Of a stretch of 64,000 nt of DNA, positions 15,398 to 64,000 are shown one piece after another. Position 1 is the first letter of the stretch; every line of letters begins with the position of its first letter. The position numbers and the translations under genes were made by a program. Source of the DNA: Bacteroidales bacterium (lineage in GTDB: Bacteria; Bacteroidota; Bacteroidia; Bacteroidales; UBA12077); assembly GCA_027859205.1 (NCBI GenBank), contig JAQIBH010000018.1, forward strand, positions 404 to 64,403, in the 5' to 3' direction. A model generated the notes under the pieces. The model was not told the DNA's origin, searched no databases, and saw only the letters and a list, made by a program, of their open reading frames with translations.

Positions 15398-17545
15398 TTA
15401 TTTTACTATTGTCATTTCGTCGATAAGTCTGGTGGCACCGGCAAATTTATCAATAATAAATAAAGTGTATCTAACATCAACACTAATTGTTCTTTGAACT
15501 TCGGGTTCGAAAACAATATCGCCACTCATTGCTTCCCAGTTACCGTCGAAAGCAGTTCCAATAAGTTCTCCTTTGCCATTTATAACAGGGCTTCCAGAAT
15601 TTCCTCCTGTAATATCATTTGTTGATAAAAATGCAACTGGCATTTCACCGTTAGCTAATGCATACTGACCGTAATCTTTAGTATTATATAGTTCTTTAAG
15701 TTTTTCAGGAACTACAAATTCCCAGTTGCTTGGATCTTCTTTTTGCATTACTCCTTTAAGTGTTGTAATATAGTCGTAATGAACGGCATCCATTGGTTTG
15801 TAATCTAAAATAGAACCATAAGTCATACGCATAGTAAAGTTTGCATCAGGATACATAGCTTTTCCTTCGTTTTTTTCCATTGTTGCGCCAACATATAATC
15901 TGTGACCTTTATCAAAGTCAGCATTTATTGTTTCTAGTTTATTGTCCAACTCATTATCTTTTTTATTAATAGATTTTGAAGCCAAATAAACAGGGTCTTT
16001 TGCTAATTTTTTAGCAGAAGGATTTCCTAAAAATGCCCATAATTTAGTTGAATCAGTAAATATTGATTTGCCATACATCTCATCAATAAACTTAGTATAG
16101 TTGTTTTTATATTTTGTTTCGATTGTATTAAATATTTCAGGTTGATATTTTTTATCAACGTTCTCAGCAAAGAGTTTAAACATTGTTTTTGCTACTTTTT
16201 GATCTGTTGGAGCATTATAGTTTTTATAGAATTTACGAGCAGTATTCTTAAAATCCGCAACAGCATCCTTAATCATTTCTTCGTTTTCAGAAATTAAAGC
16301 GATTTCATATAAAGAAATTTTTAATGAAAAAGAAATTAATTCAGTCCCTCTTAATAATGTTTCTGAAATATATTGATTTGCATGAGTGTATTCTTTTCTT
16401 GCTTCTAAGGAAGTTTTAATTAAGTGCAAAGCATTTCCGTATTTCTCCTTTCTTGCTGGATTTTCATTTATCCATTCAGTCATTACCTTTTCTTCTTCTA
16501 TTTTTCTCTCAATAATTTTTAATTGTTTTAAGGACTTATTCATTCCAATAGAATTTTTCCAGTAGTTAGCAGAACGCGCATATTTTGATGCATATTTAAT
16601 TCTAATTGCATCATCAGCAAGCATATCTTCTAATAATAATTCTTGACGAACACCGCGAACAAAAATTCTGTTTGTATTCGTAATTCTAATAACTTCTTCA
16701 AGTTCCATTGAAGTCATATATCTATCAGTTCCTCCTGGATAACCCAAGATCATTGCAAAATCATTCTTCTCAACTCCTTTTATTGAAACAGGTAAATGAT
16801 GTTTTGGTTTGTAAGGAACATTTTCTTCTGAATATTCTGCTGGATTATTGTCTTTATCCGCATATATTCTAAATAAGGAAAAATCACCGGTATGGCGTGG
16901 CCACATCCAGTTATCGGTATCAGCACCAAATTTACCAATTGATGATGGTGGAGCTCCAACCATTCTTACATCAGTAAATTTTTCATAAACTAATAAGTAG
17001 AATTTATTTCCACCATAAAATTTTTTCACACTAGCATCGTAATGAGTTCCTTTTTCGGCTTCATCAGCTATTTGGGTTCCAATTTCCTTAGCAGCATTTT
17101 GTCTTTCTGTTTCAGTCATTTCATTTGTTAATACAGAATTAACTCGGTCAGATACATCTTCAAGACTTACTAAAAATGTAACGGCTAATCCAGGTGTTGG
17201 GACTTCTTCTTCTGATGACATTGCCCAAAATCCATCTTTTAAATAATCGGTTTCTGGCGTACTATGTTGTTGAATTGCACCATAACCACAATGATGATTT
17301 GTTAATACAAGGCCTTGATCTGAAATGACTTCTCCCGTGCATCCTCGACCAAAAATTACAATGGCATCTTTCATACTGGTTTGGTTAACGCTGTAAATCT
17401 CTTCAGCAGATAATTCACAACCCATTTCTTGCATTTTCTCAATGTTAAATTGTTTGATAAGTGACAATAACCACATACCTTCGTCCGCTGTTGCCGAAAC
17501 ATTCAGCAATAAAGCGATACTTACAATAGCTAATAGTTTTTTCAT
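15398..17545 (-). CDS. S46-family dipeptidyl-peptidase (DPP7/DPP11-like)
   Basis: Signal peptide followed by the hallmark ADEGMWL. Protease-fold motifs TNHHCG and GGNSGSPV. 715 aa. Confidence 0.9.
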   Translation of the reverse strand: MKKLLAIVSIALLLNVSATADEGMWLLSLIKQFNIEKMQEMGCELSAEEIYSVNQTSMKDAIVIFGRGCTGEVISDQGLVLTNHHCGYGAIQQHSTPETDYLKDGFWAMSSEEEVPTPGLAVTFLVSLEDVSDRVNSVLTNEMTETERQNAAKEIGTQIADEAEKGTHYDASVKKFYGGNKFYLLVYEKFTDVRMVGAPPSSIGKFGADTDNWMWPRHTGDFSLFRIYADKDNNPAEYSEENVPYKPKHHLPVSIKGVEKNDFAMILGYPGGTDRYMTSMELEEVIRITNTNRIFVRGVRQELLLEDMLADDAIRIKYASKYARSANYWKNSIGMNKSLKQLKIIERKIEEEKVMTEWINENPARKEKYGNALHLIKTSLEARKEYTHANQYISETLLRGTELISFSLKISLYEIALISENEEMIKDAVADFKNTARKFYKNYNAPTDQKVAKTMFKLFAENVDKKYQPEIFNTIETKYKNNYTKFIDEMYGKSIFTDSTKLWAFLGNPSAKKLAKDPVYLASKSINKKDNELDNKLETINADFDKGHRLYVGATMEKNEGKAMYPDANFTMRMTYGSILDYKPMDAVHYDYITTLKGVMQKEDPSNWEFVVPEKLKELYNTKDYGQYALANGEMPVAFLSTNDITGGNSGSPVINGKGELIGTAFDGNWEAMSGDIVFEPEVQRTISVDVRYTLFIIDKFAGATRLIDEMTIVK

Positions 17546-61294: not shown

Positions 61295-62830
61295 ATGGAT
61301 AATAGAAAAGTAAGAGTAAGGTTTGCACCAAGTCCGACAGGACCACTGCATATTGGAGGCGTTAGAACAGCATTGTTTAATTATCTTTTTGCAAAAAAAA
61401 ATAATGGCCAGTTTATTTTAAGAATTGAAGATACAGATCAATCTAGATATGTTGATGGAGCAGAAGATTATATTATCGCATCGTTAAAATGGTGCGGAAT
61501 AAAAATTGATGAAGGAATAGAAGAAGGGGGACCTTATGGGCCATATCGCCAGTCGGATAGAAAAGAATTATATAAAGAATTTGCTGAAAATTTAATTAAT
61601 TCGGGGAATGCATATTATGCTTTTGATACTGCTGAGGAATTGGAAGCAATGAGATTGAGATTGAAGGAAGAGAAAAGTAGTGTTCAACAATATAATGCTC
61701 TTACCAGAGATAAAATGAGGAATTCTCTGGCTTTATCTGATGAAGAAACAAAGAAACATCTAATGGATAAAGTACCTTATGTTATTAGATTTAAAATGCA
61801 GAAAAATGAAGAAGTAGTTGTTGAGGATATTATTAGGGGAACAGTAAAAGTAAATACAGATCAGTTAGATGATAAAGTATTATTTAAATCTGATGGAATG
61901 CCTACATATCATTTAGCCAATGTGGTTGATGATCATTTAATGAAAATTTCGCATGTTATTCGTGGGGAGGAATGGCTACCTTCTTTACCGCTACATGTAT
62001 TATTATATAGAGCTTTTGGTTGGGATGATTCAAAACCAGAGTTTGCTCATCTTCCATTATTATTAAAACCAAGTGGAAAAGGCAAGCTAAGTAAGAGAGA
62101 CGGCGATGCTTTAGGTTTTCCTGTATTTCCGTTAGAATGGACTGATCCAGAAACTAATGAAATATCACGAGGATATCGTGAGGACGGTTATTTCCCTGAG
62201 TCTTTCGTAAACATGTTGGCCTTGTTAGGATGGAATCCGGGTACAGAAGAAGAAATTTTTTCTTTGCGAGACCTTACTTCTGTTTTTGATTTACAGAAAG
62301 TACATAAGGCTGGTGCAAAATTTGATCACGAAAAAGCAAAATGGTTCAATCATAAATATTTAGTTGTAAAAGCTGATGAGAAATTAGCAAGAGAATACCA
62401 GCTTATTCTGAAAGAGAAAGAAATAAAAGTTGAAGATAGTTTCGTTATAAAAATTGTTAAGTTGATTAAAGAACGAGCTAATTTTGTTTCTGATTTCTGG
62501 GATCAATCTTATTTCTTTTTTCAAGCTCCACAAGAGTACGATAGAAAAGTGATAAAAAAGCGATGGAAAGAAAATACTCCAGAAATACTTTCGGAATTAA
62601 AAAAGCAATTAAAAGAGCTTGAAAACTTTGACCAGTTTAATATGGAGAAATTAATTCAGGATTTTCTCGAAGGGAAAGAATATGGAATGGGACAAGTAAT
62701 GAATCCTTTTAGATTAACTCTTGTTGGCACTGGAATTGGACCGAGTGTATTAGAAATTGCTGAATTGATTGGTAAACAAGAAACCTTAAACAGATTACAA
62801 GCTGGGATTGATAATATAAAAAGAAAATAA
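61295..62830 (+). CDS. gltX: glutamate--tRNA ligase
   Basis: RFAPSPTGPLHIGGVRTALFNY (HIGH) and KLSKR (KMSKS-type). 511 aa. Confidence 0.95.
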   Translation: MDNRKVRVRFAPSPTGPLHIGGVRTALFNYLFAKKNNGQFILRIEDTDQSRYVDGAEDYIIASLKWCGIKIDEGIEEGGPYGPYRQSDRKELYKEFAENLINSGNAYYAFDTAEELEAMRLRLKEEKSSVQQYNALTRDKMRNSLALSDEETKKHLMDKVPYVIRFKMQKNEEVVVEDIIRGTVKVNTDQLDDKVLFKSDGMPTYHLANVVDDHLMKISHVIRGEEWLPSLPLHVLLYRAFGWDDSKPEFAHLPLLLKPSGKGKLSKRDGDALGFPVFPLEWTDPETNEISRGYREDGYFPESFVNMLALLGWNPGTEEEIFSLRDLTSVFDLQKVHKAGAKFDHEKAKWFNHKYLVVKADEKLAREYQLILKEKEIKVEDSFVIKIVKLIKERANFVSDFWDQSYFFFQAPQEYDRKVIKKRWKENTPEILSELKKQLKELENFDQFNMEKLIQDFLEGKEYGMGQVMNPFRLTLVGTGIGPSVLEIAELIGKQETLNRLQAGIDNIKRK

Positions 62831-63013
62831 TCAGAGTTTGTAATTAGGTCCTCGAAGATTCTAACTCATTTGCCAATTTCTAATGAAAATGCTGTAGTAG
62901 ATGATGGGCAAAATGAAAATAAGAGATCAATGGTAGGTACTAATTCTTATATGCCACCAGTTTATGGTTGTTATTGTGCTTCGGTTGTTATAAGAGATTT
63001 AACTGAATTATAA
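62831..63013 (+). pseudogene. possible C-terminal remnant of a ThiF/TcdA-family (tRNA t6A dehydratase) gene
   Basis: An open frame with no start codon runs from the gltX stop. It ends ...NKRSMVGTNSYMPPVYGCYCASVVIRDLTEL*, which resembles the C-terminus of Bacteroidota TcdA-like proteins as I recall them. No N-terminal part is present. Confidence 0.35.
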
Positions 63014-63075
63014 TTTCTAAAAATAATTGAACTACATTTGGCGAAGATTGTTTTAATAAAGAAGACTAAAAAATA

Positions 63076-63159
63076 ATGATGAAAATAAAAATGCATAGAA
63101 ACTGTTGTTGTTGCGATTATTCGGAACGGGAAAGGTATTCTTTGTATTTAATGATATAA
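63076..63159 (+). CDS. candidate leader peptide with four consecutive Cys codons
   Basis: ATG ATG AAA ATA AAA ATG CAT AGA AAC TGT TGT TGT TGC GAT TAT ... TAA translates to MMKIKMHRNCCCCDYSERERYSLYLMI. It has an A-rich upstream context, and a -7-like TACATTTG lies at 63033-63040. Confidence 0.45.
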   Translation: MMKIKMHRNCCCCDYSERERYSLYLMI

Positions 63160-63182
63160 TTAATAATTATAGATTAATTCGA

Positions 63183-63209
63183 GCCTTTCCTTTTGGAAAG
63201 GCTTTTTTT
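63183..63209 (+). terminator. rho-independent terminator between the Cys-rich leader ORF and cysE
   Basis: Stem GCCTTTCC (63183-63190), loop TTTT, GGAAAGGC (63195-63202), then T7 (63203-63209). It ends 14 nt before the cysE ATG. Confidence 0.65.
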
Positions 63210-63223
63210 ATGTAAAAATTTTA

Positions 63224-64000
63224 ATGATGGAAGAACAAGAATTTTTGAGAAAATTGGGTATTTGTAATCAGCAATTATCAGGTAATTATCCTACAAAAGA
63301 ATTAGCACTAAAATTCCTGAATCAATTGACTAATATACTTTTCCCAGTGGATGGAGAAGTAATTTTAAGTACAGCTGAAATGGATACACAATGGAAGCAA
63401 TTAAAGCTTCTACTAATGGAATTACTTTCGCCAATTAGATCGTTTCAATCTAAATCGGAAAACGAGTTAGTAGAAGAATATTTTCGAAAAATTCCAGAAA
63501 TATATAATCAATTGAATGGAGATGCAAAAGCTATATTCGAATTTGATCCAGCAGCACATTCTTTGGAAGAAATTATTTTGGCTTATCCGGGTTTTCAGGC
63601 GATAATGACCTACCGCTTGGCACATCCTTTATATCAATTAAGAATACCAATTTTACCTCGAATGTTGTCTGAATTTGCTCACACAAATACAGGAATTGAT
63701 ATTAATCCAGGTGCAACAATTGGAAAATCATTTTTTATTGATCACGGAACAGGAATTGTAATTGGCGAAACTACCGTAATAGGAGATAATGTAAAAATTT
63801 ATCAGGGAGTAACGCTCGGGGCGTTAAATGTTCGTAAAGAAGACGCAAAGAAAAAGCGACATCCTACAATTGAAGATAATGTAATTGTGTATTCAGGAAC
63901 AACAATTCTTGGTGGGAATACAGTTATTGGGCACGATAGTGTTGTGGGTGGTAATGTGTGGTTAACTAAAAGTATAGAACCATATTCTGTGGTTAGCAAT
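63224..64000 (+). CDS. cysE: serine O-acetyltransferase (EpsC/CysE type), 3' end beyond the window
   Basis: Absent from the ORF track because it runs off the edge. Hand translation is open for 259 codons: MMEEQEFLRKLG...AYPGFQAIMTYRLAH...GIDINPGATIGKSFFIDHGTGIVIGETTVIGDNVKIYQGVTLG...RHPTIEDNVIVYSGTTILGG. This is the left-handed beta-helix hexapeptide pattern of SAT. Confidence 0.9.
   Translation, partial: MMEEQEFLRKLGICNQQLSGNYPTKELALKFLNQLTNILFPVDGEVILSTAEMDTQWKQLKLLLMELLSPIRSFQSKSENELVEEYFRKIPEIYNQLNGDAKAIFEFDPAAHSLEEIILAYPGFQAIMTYRLAHPLYQLRIPILPRMLSEFAHTNTGIDINPGATIGKSFFIDHGTGIVIGETTVIGDNVKIYQGVTLGALNVRKEDAKKKRHPTIEDNVIVYSGTTILGGNTVIGHDSVVGGNVWLTKSIEPYSVVSN

Follow-up and report, generated by a model that had tools for sequence, protein, structure and literature searches.

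Introduction

The classical leader-peptide attenuators are those of enterobacteria, namely trpL, hisL, leuL, thrL, pheL and ilvL. In the gltX-cysE-cysS region of Bacillus subtilis, control is exerted by a Cys-specific T-box antiterminator upstream of cysE-cysS, and a T-box leader RNA recognises uncharged tRNA by direct binding, with neither a leader ORF nor a ribosome taking part. Bacteroidota play important parts in gut, soil and aquatic environments. To our knowledge little has been established about how they regulate cysteine synthesis, and we know of no Shine-Dalgarno-led initiation in the group.

Leaders with Cys codons have been described outside the Bacteroidota. They were predicted in Actinobacteria, including one upstream of the Mycobacterium tuberculosis cysK1-cysE, by Seliverstov et al. 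2005 (PMC1262725), and polycysteine short ORFs on leaderless mycobacterial mRNAs (Ms5788A; Rv2334A upstream of cysK1-cysE) were subsequently reported by Canestrari et al. 2020 (bioRxiv 10.1101/834739). The action of the mycobacterial leaders is translational and has been tested experimentally, and short-ORF attenuation for cysteine was called undescribed as late as 2020 (10.1101/834739). In Rhodobacterales, Brewer et al. 2021 (PMC8632094) described the uORFC-8-2 motif, which precedes cysS and is predicted to be a ribosome-mediated attenuator. Within the Bacteroidota, leader-peptide attenuators for other amino acids are reported in Flavobacterium (PMC9723704), and the passages searched of a Flavobacterium psychrophilum transcriptome supplement mention leader peptides for ilvE and hisG and contain no match for cysE. 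Our literature search for a cysE or cysteine leader in Bacteroidota found no description, with the qualification that papers beyond the scope of the search may exist.

The cysE leader and its operon

In this study we analysed a leader at the end of a 64 kb stretch of DNA, referred to as the window. It lies upstream of cysE and consists of the following features.

63033-63040, + strand: putative promoter-like -7 box TACATTTG, of the Bacteroidota TAnnTTTG type
63076-63159, + strand: leader ORF MMKIKMHRNCCCCDYSERERYSLYLMI, 27 codons plus TAA (stop at 63157)
63089-63149, + strand: 1:2 hairpin (anti-antiterminator or pause hairpin), long and imperfect, present in the minimum free energy (MFE) fold, -20.8 kcal/mol
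63103-63114, + strand: regulatory Cys codons 10-13, TGT TGT TGT TGC, where the ribosome is proposed to stall and which form segment 1 (5' strand) of the 1:2 hairpin
63128-63136, + strand: segment 2, GGGAAAGGT, 5' strand of the antiterminator, starting 13 nt past the last Cys codon
63181-63204, + strand: intrinsic terminator hairpin (3:4), 10 pairs of which 5 are G-C, loop TTTT, -16.3 kcal/mol
63183-63191, + strand: segment 3, GCCTTTCCT, which forms the 3' strand of the antiterminator and supplies most of the terminator's 5' arm as well
63203-63209, + strand: T7 tract of the terminator, its end 14 nt from the cysE ATG
63224-64000, + strand: cysE, encoding an EpsC-type serine O-acetyltransferase and running past the end of the window

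An earlier, sequence-only reading had placed the 27-codon ORF and its Cys codons at 10-13, and on recheck all of these coordinates were correct. It had also called Cys rare in the proteins of the window, which was borne out, Cys making up 0.56% of the residues of its 39 long ORFs; a run of four TGY codons occurs once in the 64 kb, in the leader. The 8-bp terminator core given at 63183-63202 sits inside the 10-pair stem found by our scan, and both the T7 tract and its 14-nt spacing were correctly described. The other frames of the TGY repeat were considered and rejected as a Leu or Val reading: in the window a TAG at 63096 closes the Leu frame, which lacks an ATG.

The cysE ATG is at 63224-63226, directly followed by a second ATG. 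The full CysE protein has 280 residues and is 100% identical to a database entry (P0001); it scores 163 bits against the EpsC model NF041874 (cut-off 150). On L161, an identical copy of the contig, cysE is directly followed by a gene that scores 396 bits against the cysK model TIGR01139 (cut-off 351). Serine is converted to cysteine in two dedicated steps, catalysed by EpsC-type serine acetyltransferase and CysK.

Comparison with described systems

Like the enterobacterial attenuators, the leader has four segments forming mutually exclusive 1:2, 2:3 and 3:4 helices, and an intrinsic terminator placed just before the first gene of the pathway for the amino acid that is presumably sensed. It differs from them in that this amino acid would be cysteine, the genes controlled would be cysE-cysK and the host is a low-G+C member of the Bacteroidota.

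The mycobacterial system shares with it an upstream short ORF, consecutive Cys codons, a role, here predicted, for Cys-tRNA sensing and a cysK-cysE operon among the targets; it also occupies several loci per genome, and Cys-run leaders are likewise found before cysK and a homocysteine-synthase-like gene in other Bacteroidales. However, the mycobacterial ORF is on leaderless mRNA and has its Cys tract at the C-terminal end, whereas in the window leader the Cys tract occupies a central position in the ORF, and the promoter-like box, which is conserved and ends 35 nt before the ATG, suggests a 5' UTR and so argues against a leaderless transcript. The output elements are also distinct, this being an intrinsic terminator in the window, whereas in mycobacteria the Cys tract pairs with the downstream ribosome-binding region and no terminator is involved. 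The resemblance to uORFC-8-2, compared here by description, lies in tandem Cys codons within the first stem and in a terminal U-run which in uORFC-8-2 is consistent with an intrinsic terminator. That motif contains a pair of Cys codons, at about positions 14-15, precedes cysS and is confined to one alpha-proteobacterial order, as against four Cys codons at positions 10-13 with cysE downstream. The B. subtilis T-box is similar in providing a conditional terminator between gltX and cysE with readthrough on uncharged tRNA-Cys; the T-box covariance model gave no match at E up to 10 in 62700-63400, nor at its gathering score anywhere in the window.

A search against Rfam, proposed with the sequence-only reading, recognised no family. 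Around the leader (62700-63400, E up to 10) the best match was Phe_leader, whose 23.3 bits fall short of its gathering score of 55, and such sub-threshold matches covered the terminator hairpin alone; no family reached its gathering score anywhere in the window, and the leader thus resembles none of the Rfam leader families (Trp_leader, His_leader, Leu_leader, Thr_leader, Phe_leader) in sequence or by covariance model. The earlier remark that no described Cys leader-peptide attenuator for cysE was known was too broad as worded, Cys leaders being known in Actinobacteria and before cysS in Rhodobacterales; for cysE of Bacteroidota our search found none.

Conservation among close relatives

A scan of genome contigs gave no CysE more than 62% identical among the matches listed, and closer relatives were therefore obtained through a protein database and contig look-ups; the genome and metagenome scans covered up to 80 loci each. 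Conservation of a Cys-run short ORF and a terminator upstream of cysE orthologues had been set beforehand as the check on the attenuator reading. In all 13 closer relatives studied (CysE 61-81% identical) the ORF is retained, the Cys run starts after 9-10 codons, and antiterminator box and terminator are both present. In the 13-sequence alignment (A1) the column of the leader ATG is invariant or nearly so, and TTGTTG is invariant. Segment 2 begins 12-14 nt past the Cys run throughout the clade of the window. The leader, its Cys run and its terminator stay with cysE also in relatives where the genes further upstream differ, being tatD-thiF or genes for Por-tail proteins. A homologous leader is present in Bacteroidales bacterium CF (CP006772.1), a cultivable carrier, at 2843-2981 of L050. 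The covariance model of the clade, R1, found no second copy within the window; against other lineages it gave weak matches (E 2e-4 to 0.6), which are compatible with either shared ancestry or convergence.

Alternative RNA helices

Of the three helices the terminator shows the strongest conservation, with 99.2% of cells paired across the 13 relatives and compensatory changes at three pairs. Where a true terminator T-run was detected, in ten members of the clade, the distance from it to the cysE ATG is 10-23 nt; L164, L172 and L081, in which the scan stopped at an earlier T-run, were left out of this count.

Segment 3 belongs to both the terminator and the antiterminator, and for this reason the two are mutually exclusive. 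The antiterminator helix (63128-63136 with 63183-63191) consists of 7 Watson-Crick and 2 G-U pairs at -9.9 kcal/mol, with the complementary boxes GGAAAGG at 63129-63135 and CCTTTCC at 63184-63190. The pairing of these boxes, already proposed from the sequence, holds in the relatives: the one variable position shows G-C, A-U or G-U and never an A-C clash, and the core helix is 93.3% paired over the 13 sequences. As a duplex, the strands of the window (those of L161 are identical) reach -11.8 kcal/mol (z = -3.7), a value attained by none of 200 shuffles. A column-shuffle control was mostly non-significant, the observed percentage paired being reached, for example, by 104 of 500 shuffles, and support for the antiterminator comes instead from slid controls, per-locus shuffles and the constant spacing to the Cys run. 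The comparison of fold energies suggested with the sequence-only reading makes the antiterminator the weaker of the two (-9.9 against -16.3 kcal/mol), and its loop is closed over about 46 nt.

The same reading had seen no clear pause hairpin, and in this it was mistaken, since the MFE fold contains the 1:2 hairpin. In it the Cys codons and their flanks pair with 63125-63149, the GGGAAAGG segment included, so that the partner of the Cys tract takes in segment 2 (63125-63136) with GGAAAGG. Across the 13 sequences 84.6% of cells of this hairpin are paired, compared with 44-63% in slid controls, and when the pre-terminator transcripts were folded independently, 12 of 13 showed segment 2 paired with the Cys run. 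RNAalifold, applied to the alignment of the 13 leaders, predicted the terminator alone and recovered neither the antiterminator nor the 1:2 hairpin; these two were evaluated as named structures, by slid controls and by per-sequence folds. The fold of the whole leader has an energy of -40.2 kcal/mol (z = -4.9), equalled by none of 200 shuffles.

Cys-run leaders in other lineages

[quoted passage not shown] Codon runs for the other 19 amino acids were not enriched upstream of cysE, Cys being alone among the 20. The Cys frame is also favoured across loci, since an ATG short ORF accompanies 29 of 32 TGY runs in this frame as opposed to 3 of 32 and 8 of 32 in the other two. The occurrence of four Cys codons ahead of cysteine-making genes is not a matter of chance.

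Analogous Cys-run leaders occur in Bacteroidota and Calditrichota, in no fewer than eight lineages that are unrelated in sequence. The Cys run begins after 8-12 codons in 22 of the 29 leaders, and in nearly all other lineages that have a terminator the antiterminator strand starts 9-14 nt past the run, a spacing of about one ribosome edge. A strong terminator (-12.7 kcal/mol or stronger) is present in 24 of the 29, mostly 15-32 nt before cysE, and the antiterminator duplex outperforms shuffles at p<0.05 in 17 of these 24 loci. In other Bacteroidales, cysK (L011) and a homocysteine-synthase-like gene (L031) are preceded by tandem Cys/Met-run leaders that also have terminators. Some Cys leaders are arranged in tandem and some have mixed Met and Cys codons.

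It could be argued that the ORF senses Cys-tRNA but acts on the translation of cysE or the stability of its mRNA rather than on termination. The mycobacterial short ORFs, which free a sequestered ribosome-binding site (10.1101/834739), provide a precedent for such an action, and no terminator was recognisable in five of the 29 Cys-run leaders (L018, L019, L023, L028 and L158, mostly from Calditrichota). Other output mechanisms therefore probably exist in some lineages. For the window itself we regard a translational or stability mechanism as improbable. A canonical G+C-rich hairpin with a T-run is present there, as in the 24 leaders with a terminator, and no other helix is conserved as strongly; the Cys tract, moreover, pairs with segment 2 and not with the cysE start region, which lies outside every predicted helix, 14 nt past the T-tract.

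The leader peptides differ completely between lineages, and what is kept is the Cys run together with its spacing from the ATG and from the antiterminator strand, as is to be expected of a codon sensor. This bears on the suggestion that the ORF encodes a functional Cys-rich micro-protein, or marks an independent small RNA gene with an unconditional terminator, and that cysE is transcribed from another promoter. The ORF and terminator of a small gene would indeed look alike, and certain residues that follow the Cys run (D-Y/F-S, R/G, Y) do recur among members of the close clade. These residues, however, overlap nucleotides of the 1:2 and 2:3 helices, and across lineages the peptides are unrelated except for the Cys run and its spacings. 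In addition, the association is specific to genes of cysteine and sulfur amino acids, and the 10-23 nt between the T-tract and cysE in the ten clade members leave no room for a promoter. A separate small gene is in our opinion very improbable here, and attenuation remains the preferred interpretation of the leader.

The promoter-like box and the upstream region

The box TAnnTTTG, which we take to be the sigma-A -7 element of Bacteroidota, had been put forward only tentatively, and it proved to be conserved: TAnnTTT[G/A] is found in 13 of 14 clade members, at 19-47 nt before the ATG of the leader. By its position, TACATTTG would imply that transcription starts a few nucleotides downstream, giving a 5' UTR of perhaps 25-35 nt. 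The 14 nt that separate the T-tract from the cysE ATG contain no TAnnTTTG motif, and cysE would thus be transcribed solely by readthrough of the hairpin.

A further explanation is that the hairpin is merely the terminator of the upstream unit, comprising gltX and a 47-codon ORF, and that the Cys run is coincidental. The gltX gene is on the same strand as the hairpin and ends at 62830, and a scan of the + strand between gltX and cysE found no terminator-like site besides the leader hairpin. Against this, the hairpin lies about 350 nt past the gltX stop with the conserved promoter-like box in between, the leader remains with cysE where the upstream genes are different, and the census of cysE upstream regions excludes chance. 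The 47-codon ORF (62870-63013), considered as a conserved small protein, is instead what remains of a TcdA/ThiF-family gene, namely its last 42 codons, the gene being intact in relatives; as a gene relic it is not part of the element. It is therefore extremely improbable that the hairpin serves gltX.

A proposed model for attenuation of cysE-cysK

Taken with the conserved ORF, the Cys run, the terminator, antiterminator and 1:2 hairpin and the cysE-cysK operon that follows, the earlier suggestion of cysteine attenuation is supported, and we conclude that the leader is very probably a classical ribosome-mediated transcription attenuator of cysE-cysK that senses the charging of tRNA-Cys. From the arrangement of the DNA we infer a transcription start, translation of the leader ORF, stalling and a response to cysteine, which may be combined as follows. 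Transcription would start past the TACATTTG box and a ribosome would initiate the leader ORF at 63076. Given ample Cys-tRNA, this ribosome would pass the four Cys codons and reach the stop codon (63157); behind it segments 1 and 2 would re-pair, or segment 2 would be covered as segment 3 emerges, and in either case segment 3 would pair with segment 4, so that the hairpin and U7 would cause RNA polymerase to terminate 14 nt before cysE. When Cys-tRNA is scarce the ribosome would stall at codons 10-13, covering segment 1 and about 12 nt beyond it. The GGGAAAGGT strand, 13 nt past the Cys run, would stay free to pair with the emerging GCCTTTCC; the terminator would be blocked and transcription would continue into cysE-cysK. 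With no ribosome on the leader, 1:2 and 3:4 would both form, leading to termination.

Implications

The mechanism proposed here is a known one, and the understanding of attenuation itself is unchanged by it; what appears to be new, no earlier description having been found, is its use for the cysteine biosynthesis operon cysE-cysK in Bacteroidota. If true, classical attenuation would be extended to cysteine biosynthesis genes. It would also have practical consequences for annotation, showing that gene callers misannotate the leader region by extending cysE starts across the terminator and leaving the leader ORFs uncalled, and the element would offer a compact cysteine-responsive switch for the engineering of Bacteroidota.

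Considering the lineages together, it seems somewhat likely that Cys leaders with intrinsic terminators represent an undescribed and repeatedly evolved layer of sulfur amino-acid control in Bacteroidota and Calditrichota, and the first examples of classical attenuation by transcription termination in cysteine biosynthesis. The reach of such a layer would include cysE-cysK, cysK alone and a homocysteine-synthase-like gene. If this is so, these bacteria may possess a regulon read by the ribosome that is analogous to the mycobacterial Cys ribulon, though distinct from it in mechanism.

The leader region of cysE

The region upstream of cysE-cysK very probably acts as a ribosome-mediated transcription attenuator that senses the charging of tRNA-Cys. 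Its parts are as follows.

63033-63040, + strand: promoter-like box TACATTTG
63076-63159, + strand: leader ORF, encoding MMKIKMHRNCCCCDYSERERYSLYLMI
63089-63149: long, imperfect 1:2 hairpin, -20.8 kcal/mol (MFE fold)
63103-63114, + strand: Cys codons TGT TGT TGT TGC, inside the leader ORF (segment 1)
63129-63135 and 63184-63190, + strand: complementary boxes GGAAAGG and CCTTTCC
63128-63136 with 63183-63191: antiterminator 2:3, seven Watson-Crick and two G-U pairs
63181-63204, + strand: terminator stem 3:4, ten pairs, five of them G-C, loop TTTT (terminator scan)
63203-63209, + strand: T7 run of the terminator

A sequence-only reading of this DNA had placed the leader ORF, its Cys codons, the complementary boxes and the promoter-like box at these same positions and had seen a terminator ahead of cysE, and that observation is confirmed. 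Cysteine is, as it had remarked, rare in the proteins of the window (0.56% of the residues of 39 long ORFs; 30.7% G+C), and the only run of four TGT or TGC codons in the whole 64 kb lies inside the leader. In the MFE fold of the leader (-40.2 kcal/mol, z = -4.9 against shuffles) the Cys codons pair with 63125-63136, the GGGAAAGG segment, which can alternatively pair with the 5' arm of the terminator, the two pairings being mutually exclusive. The energies of terminator and antiterminator, whose comparison had been proposed as a check, are -16.3 and -9.9 kcal/mol. No clear pause hairpin had been seen in that reading; the MFE fold has one, at 63089-63149, so that with antiterminator and terminator all three helices of a classical attenuator (1:2, 2:3 and 3:4) are present.

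Only one other short ORF of the window combines a run of one amino acid with a terminator-like hairpin, namely MLDTLYLLLINLPVPPDLSTK with LLL (15412-15477, - strand), and this is probably a chance occurrence.

The downstream operon and its neighbourhood

The ORF downstream of the leader starts at the ATG at 63224, 14 nt past the T-run, and its product is 100% identical to the database protein P0001 (280 aa), which passes the NCBIfam model for EpsC-type serine O-acetyltransferases (163 bits against a cut-off of 150). On L161, an identical copy of the contig, the next gene is cysK (396 bits against 351), and thus the element precedes cysE-cysK, whose products carry out the two steps dedicated to making cysteine from serine. 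No promoter motif was seen in the 14 nt of window sequence between the T-tract and the cysE ATG, so that cysE would be transcribed only by readthrough of the hairpin. It might be argued that the hairpin is instead the terminator of gltX and the Cys run a coincidence; this is contradicted by the relatives, in which the upstream genes differ and yet the leader stays with cysE.

The public metagenome record annotates a 47-codon ORF between gltX and the leader (62870-63013, + strand) as a gene. Its product matches residues 198-239 of an intact 239-aa TcdA/ThiF-family protein on L165, from a relative, at 74% identity, and the ORF is what remains of the final ~42 codons of such a gene. In several relatives the order is gltX-tatD-thiF/tcdA-[leader]-cysE, so that tatD and the greater part of the tcdA-like gene have apparently been lost in the window genome. 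A DUF4180 gene of ~120 aa lies between cysE and cysK in most close relatives (L164-L169, L173) and is absent from the window's contig, L163, L170, L171 and L172. Public annotation lists none of the leader ORFs, and in two relatives the start of cysE is placed too far upstream, across the terminator or leader (L169, 2001-2897, 298 aa; L173, 1501-2373, 290 aa; against about 278-280 aa). The element itself is the cause of these annotation errors, which are systematic.

Conservation in close relatives

Among the matches listed from a scan of species-representative genomes no CysE was more than 62% identical; relatives at 65-84% identity were present in the protein database. The close set consisted of the DNA of eleven relatives (65-81% identity) and two from a metagenome scan. 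The short ORF with a Cys run followed by a terminator, whose conservation upstream of cysE the earlier reading had put forward for checking, is kept in all 13. Each has an ATG-started leader ORF of 24-28 codons, 3-5 Cys codons starting at codon 10 or 11 (one reads CCWCCC), a purine-rich box 12-14 nt after the Cys run, and a hairpin with a T-run, which ends 10-23 nt before cysE where the true terminator T-run was caught. In 13 of 14 relatives the leader ATG is preceded, at a distance of 19-47 nt, by a TAnnTTTG box, which we take to be the Bacteroidota -7 promoter consensus.

In an alignment of 13 leader sequences the terminator is 99.2% paired, with compensatory changes at three pairs (four sequences have C-G in place of U-A, for example). 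For the antiterminator core the figure is 93.3%, and the variable position of this core is G-C, A-U or G-U and never A-C. Pairing in the 1:2 hairpin reaches 84.6%, compared with 44-63% for slid partners. RNAalifold alone recovered the terminator from this alignment and neither the antiterminator nor the 1:2 helix, and a column-shuffle control of the antiterminator was not significant on most measures. Folding each pre-terminator transcript alone gave, for 12 of 13, a pairing of segment 2 with the run of Cys codons. The one that did not, L172 (about 1838-1920), has its Cys run interrupted by a Trp codon, TGT TGT TGG TGT TGT TGT.

A census of cysE upstream regions

The comparison covered 152 distinct regions upstream of cysE, taken from 80 listed genome loci, 80 listed metagenome loci and look-ups; an ATG-started ORF no longer than 60 codons counted as a leader if it had three or more consecutive Cys. 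Such leaders were present in 29 regions, against none on the reverse strand and 0.2 in mononucleotide shuffles; runs of at least four Cys numbered 17 on the forward strand and none on the reverse strand or in shuffles. No other amino acid showed a comparable excess on the forward strand of these regions, the smaller excesses of Val and Leu being consistent with out-of-frame readings of TGY repeats (TGT or TGC). The Cys frame holds an ATG-started short ORF in 29 of 32 TGY runs, and the other frames in 3 and 8 of 32.

The carriers include Bacteroidales, Chitinophagales, Saprospiraceae, other Bacteroidota and Calditrichota. Their peptides, of which MTIHSHACTCCCAAQPALGGYVC, MKFNRTYFQACCCCCPLPRKGISATCGYEAVS and MINKLFCCACCCTP are examples, share nothing between lineages beyond the Cys run, which fits a sensor of codons rather than a peptide with a function of its own. 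Were the ORF a functional Cys-rich micro-protein, or the region a stand-alone small RNA, it would be left unexplained why conservation is limited to the Cys run and its spacings, why there is no room for a cysE promoter, and why the element is specific for cysteine genes.

In 22 of the 29 leaders 8-12 codons precede the Cys run. Terminators of -12.7 kcal/mol or stronger are present in 24, in most cases 15-32 nt ahead of cysE. In nearly all of these 24 the strand that pairs with the terminator 5' arm begins 9-14 nt past the Cys run, and in 17 the antiterminator duplex is better than shuffles (p<0.05). Judged from ribosome footprints in general, a spacing of ~13 nt would roughly match the reach of the 3' edge of a ribosome that has stalled at the last Cys codon.

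In five loci (L018, L023 and L028, of Calditrichota, L019 and L158) no intrinsic terminator is recognisable between the short ORF, with 3-7 Cys codons, and cysE. Output there may differ, for example by being translational or Rho-dependent. An output through translation or mRNA stability, as in mycobacteria, is possible for these few leaders and unlikely for the element described here, because the output element conserved there is a terminator of canonical type and the start of cysE is free of structure.

Proposed mechanism and comparison with known systems

The comparative evidence supports interpretation of the element as an attenuator. Given the predicted transcription start and translation of the leader, plentiful Cys-tRNA would let the ribosome clear the leader, helix 3:4 would form and transcription would stop before cysE. 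When Cys-tRNA is scarce the ribosome would stall at codons 10-13 and mask segment 1, segment 2 would then capture segment 3, and the expected physiological response would be transcription running on into cysE-cysK.

This mechanism and layout are those of the enterobacterial trp, his, leu, thr, phe and ilv leaders. No Rfam family reached its gathering score anywhere in the window (1-64000, both strands), and the element scores as a member of none of the Rfam leader families. Cys-codon leaders as such are not new: they have been predicted, without terminators, before actinobacterial cys operons (Seliverstov et al. 2005, PMC1262725), polycysteine leaderless short ORFs attenuate translation in mycobacteria, one being listed upstream of M. 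tuberculosis cysK1-cysE (Canestrari et al. 2020, 10.1101/834739), and a terminator-type Cys upstream ORF has been predicted before Rhodobacterales cysS (Brewer et al. 2021, PMC8632094). In the mycobacterial class the Cys tract pairs with the ribosome-binding site and there is no terminator, and on that defining feature, which was tested, our element differs; from the Rhodobacterales motif it differs in gene, codon number and taxon. A Flavobacterium psychrophilum transcriptome paper describes leader-peptide attenuators for ilvE and hisG, and a search of its supplement found no mention of cysE. For no gene of Bacteroidota, cysE and cysK included, did we find a Cys leader described in the literature searched, and to that extent the novelty suggested by the sequence-only reading stands for cysE in this phylum.

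A covariance model of the close relatives' leaders picked up, weakly, a different leader ORF, MKMAQVYFNNFFNFFNMN, in which Asn and Phe codons are frequent and which is accompanied by a GGAAGG box and a terminator, in Crocinitomicaceae-type loci (L039, 3789-3911; L126, 3345-3458; L128, 2236-2349; L038, 4861-4952). It precedes asnA (442 bits against a cut-off of 293) and then a prephenate-dehydratase-like gene, and this putative attenuator may sense two amino acids. Two other Bacteroidales loci have leaders in tandem, with many Met and Cys codons and each with its own hairpin and T-run terminator: MHSKAQDILNTSINTMMCCCMGI then MKVKSTLASHSPHAANSCCCPLNLQSRIGYTMLC on L011 (about 2040-2440, - strand), upstream of a small membrane ORF (136 aa) and cysK (403 bits against 351), and MYIKASVILNASNNAMMCCCMCV then MAFQTSITNPLFHMCMCCCMILRMRNG on L031 (about 290-665, - strand), upstream of a homocysteine-synthase/O-acetylhomoserine-sulfhydrylase-like gene. 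These suggest that several sulfur amino-acid genes of the phylum are under Cys-codon leader control, and that a wider set of Cys/Met leader-controlled genes exists in Bacteroidales. The mechanism itself is an ordinary one; the amino acid, the operon and the phylum are, as far as we could find, new for attenuation of this kind.
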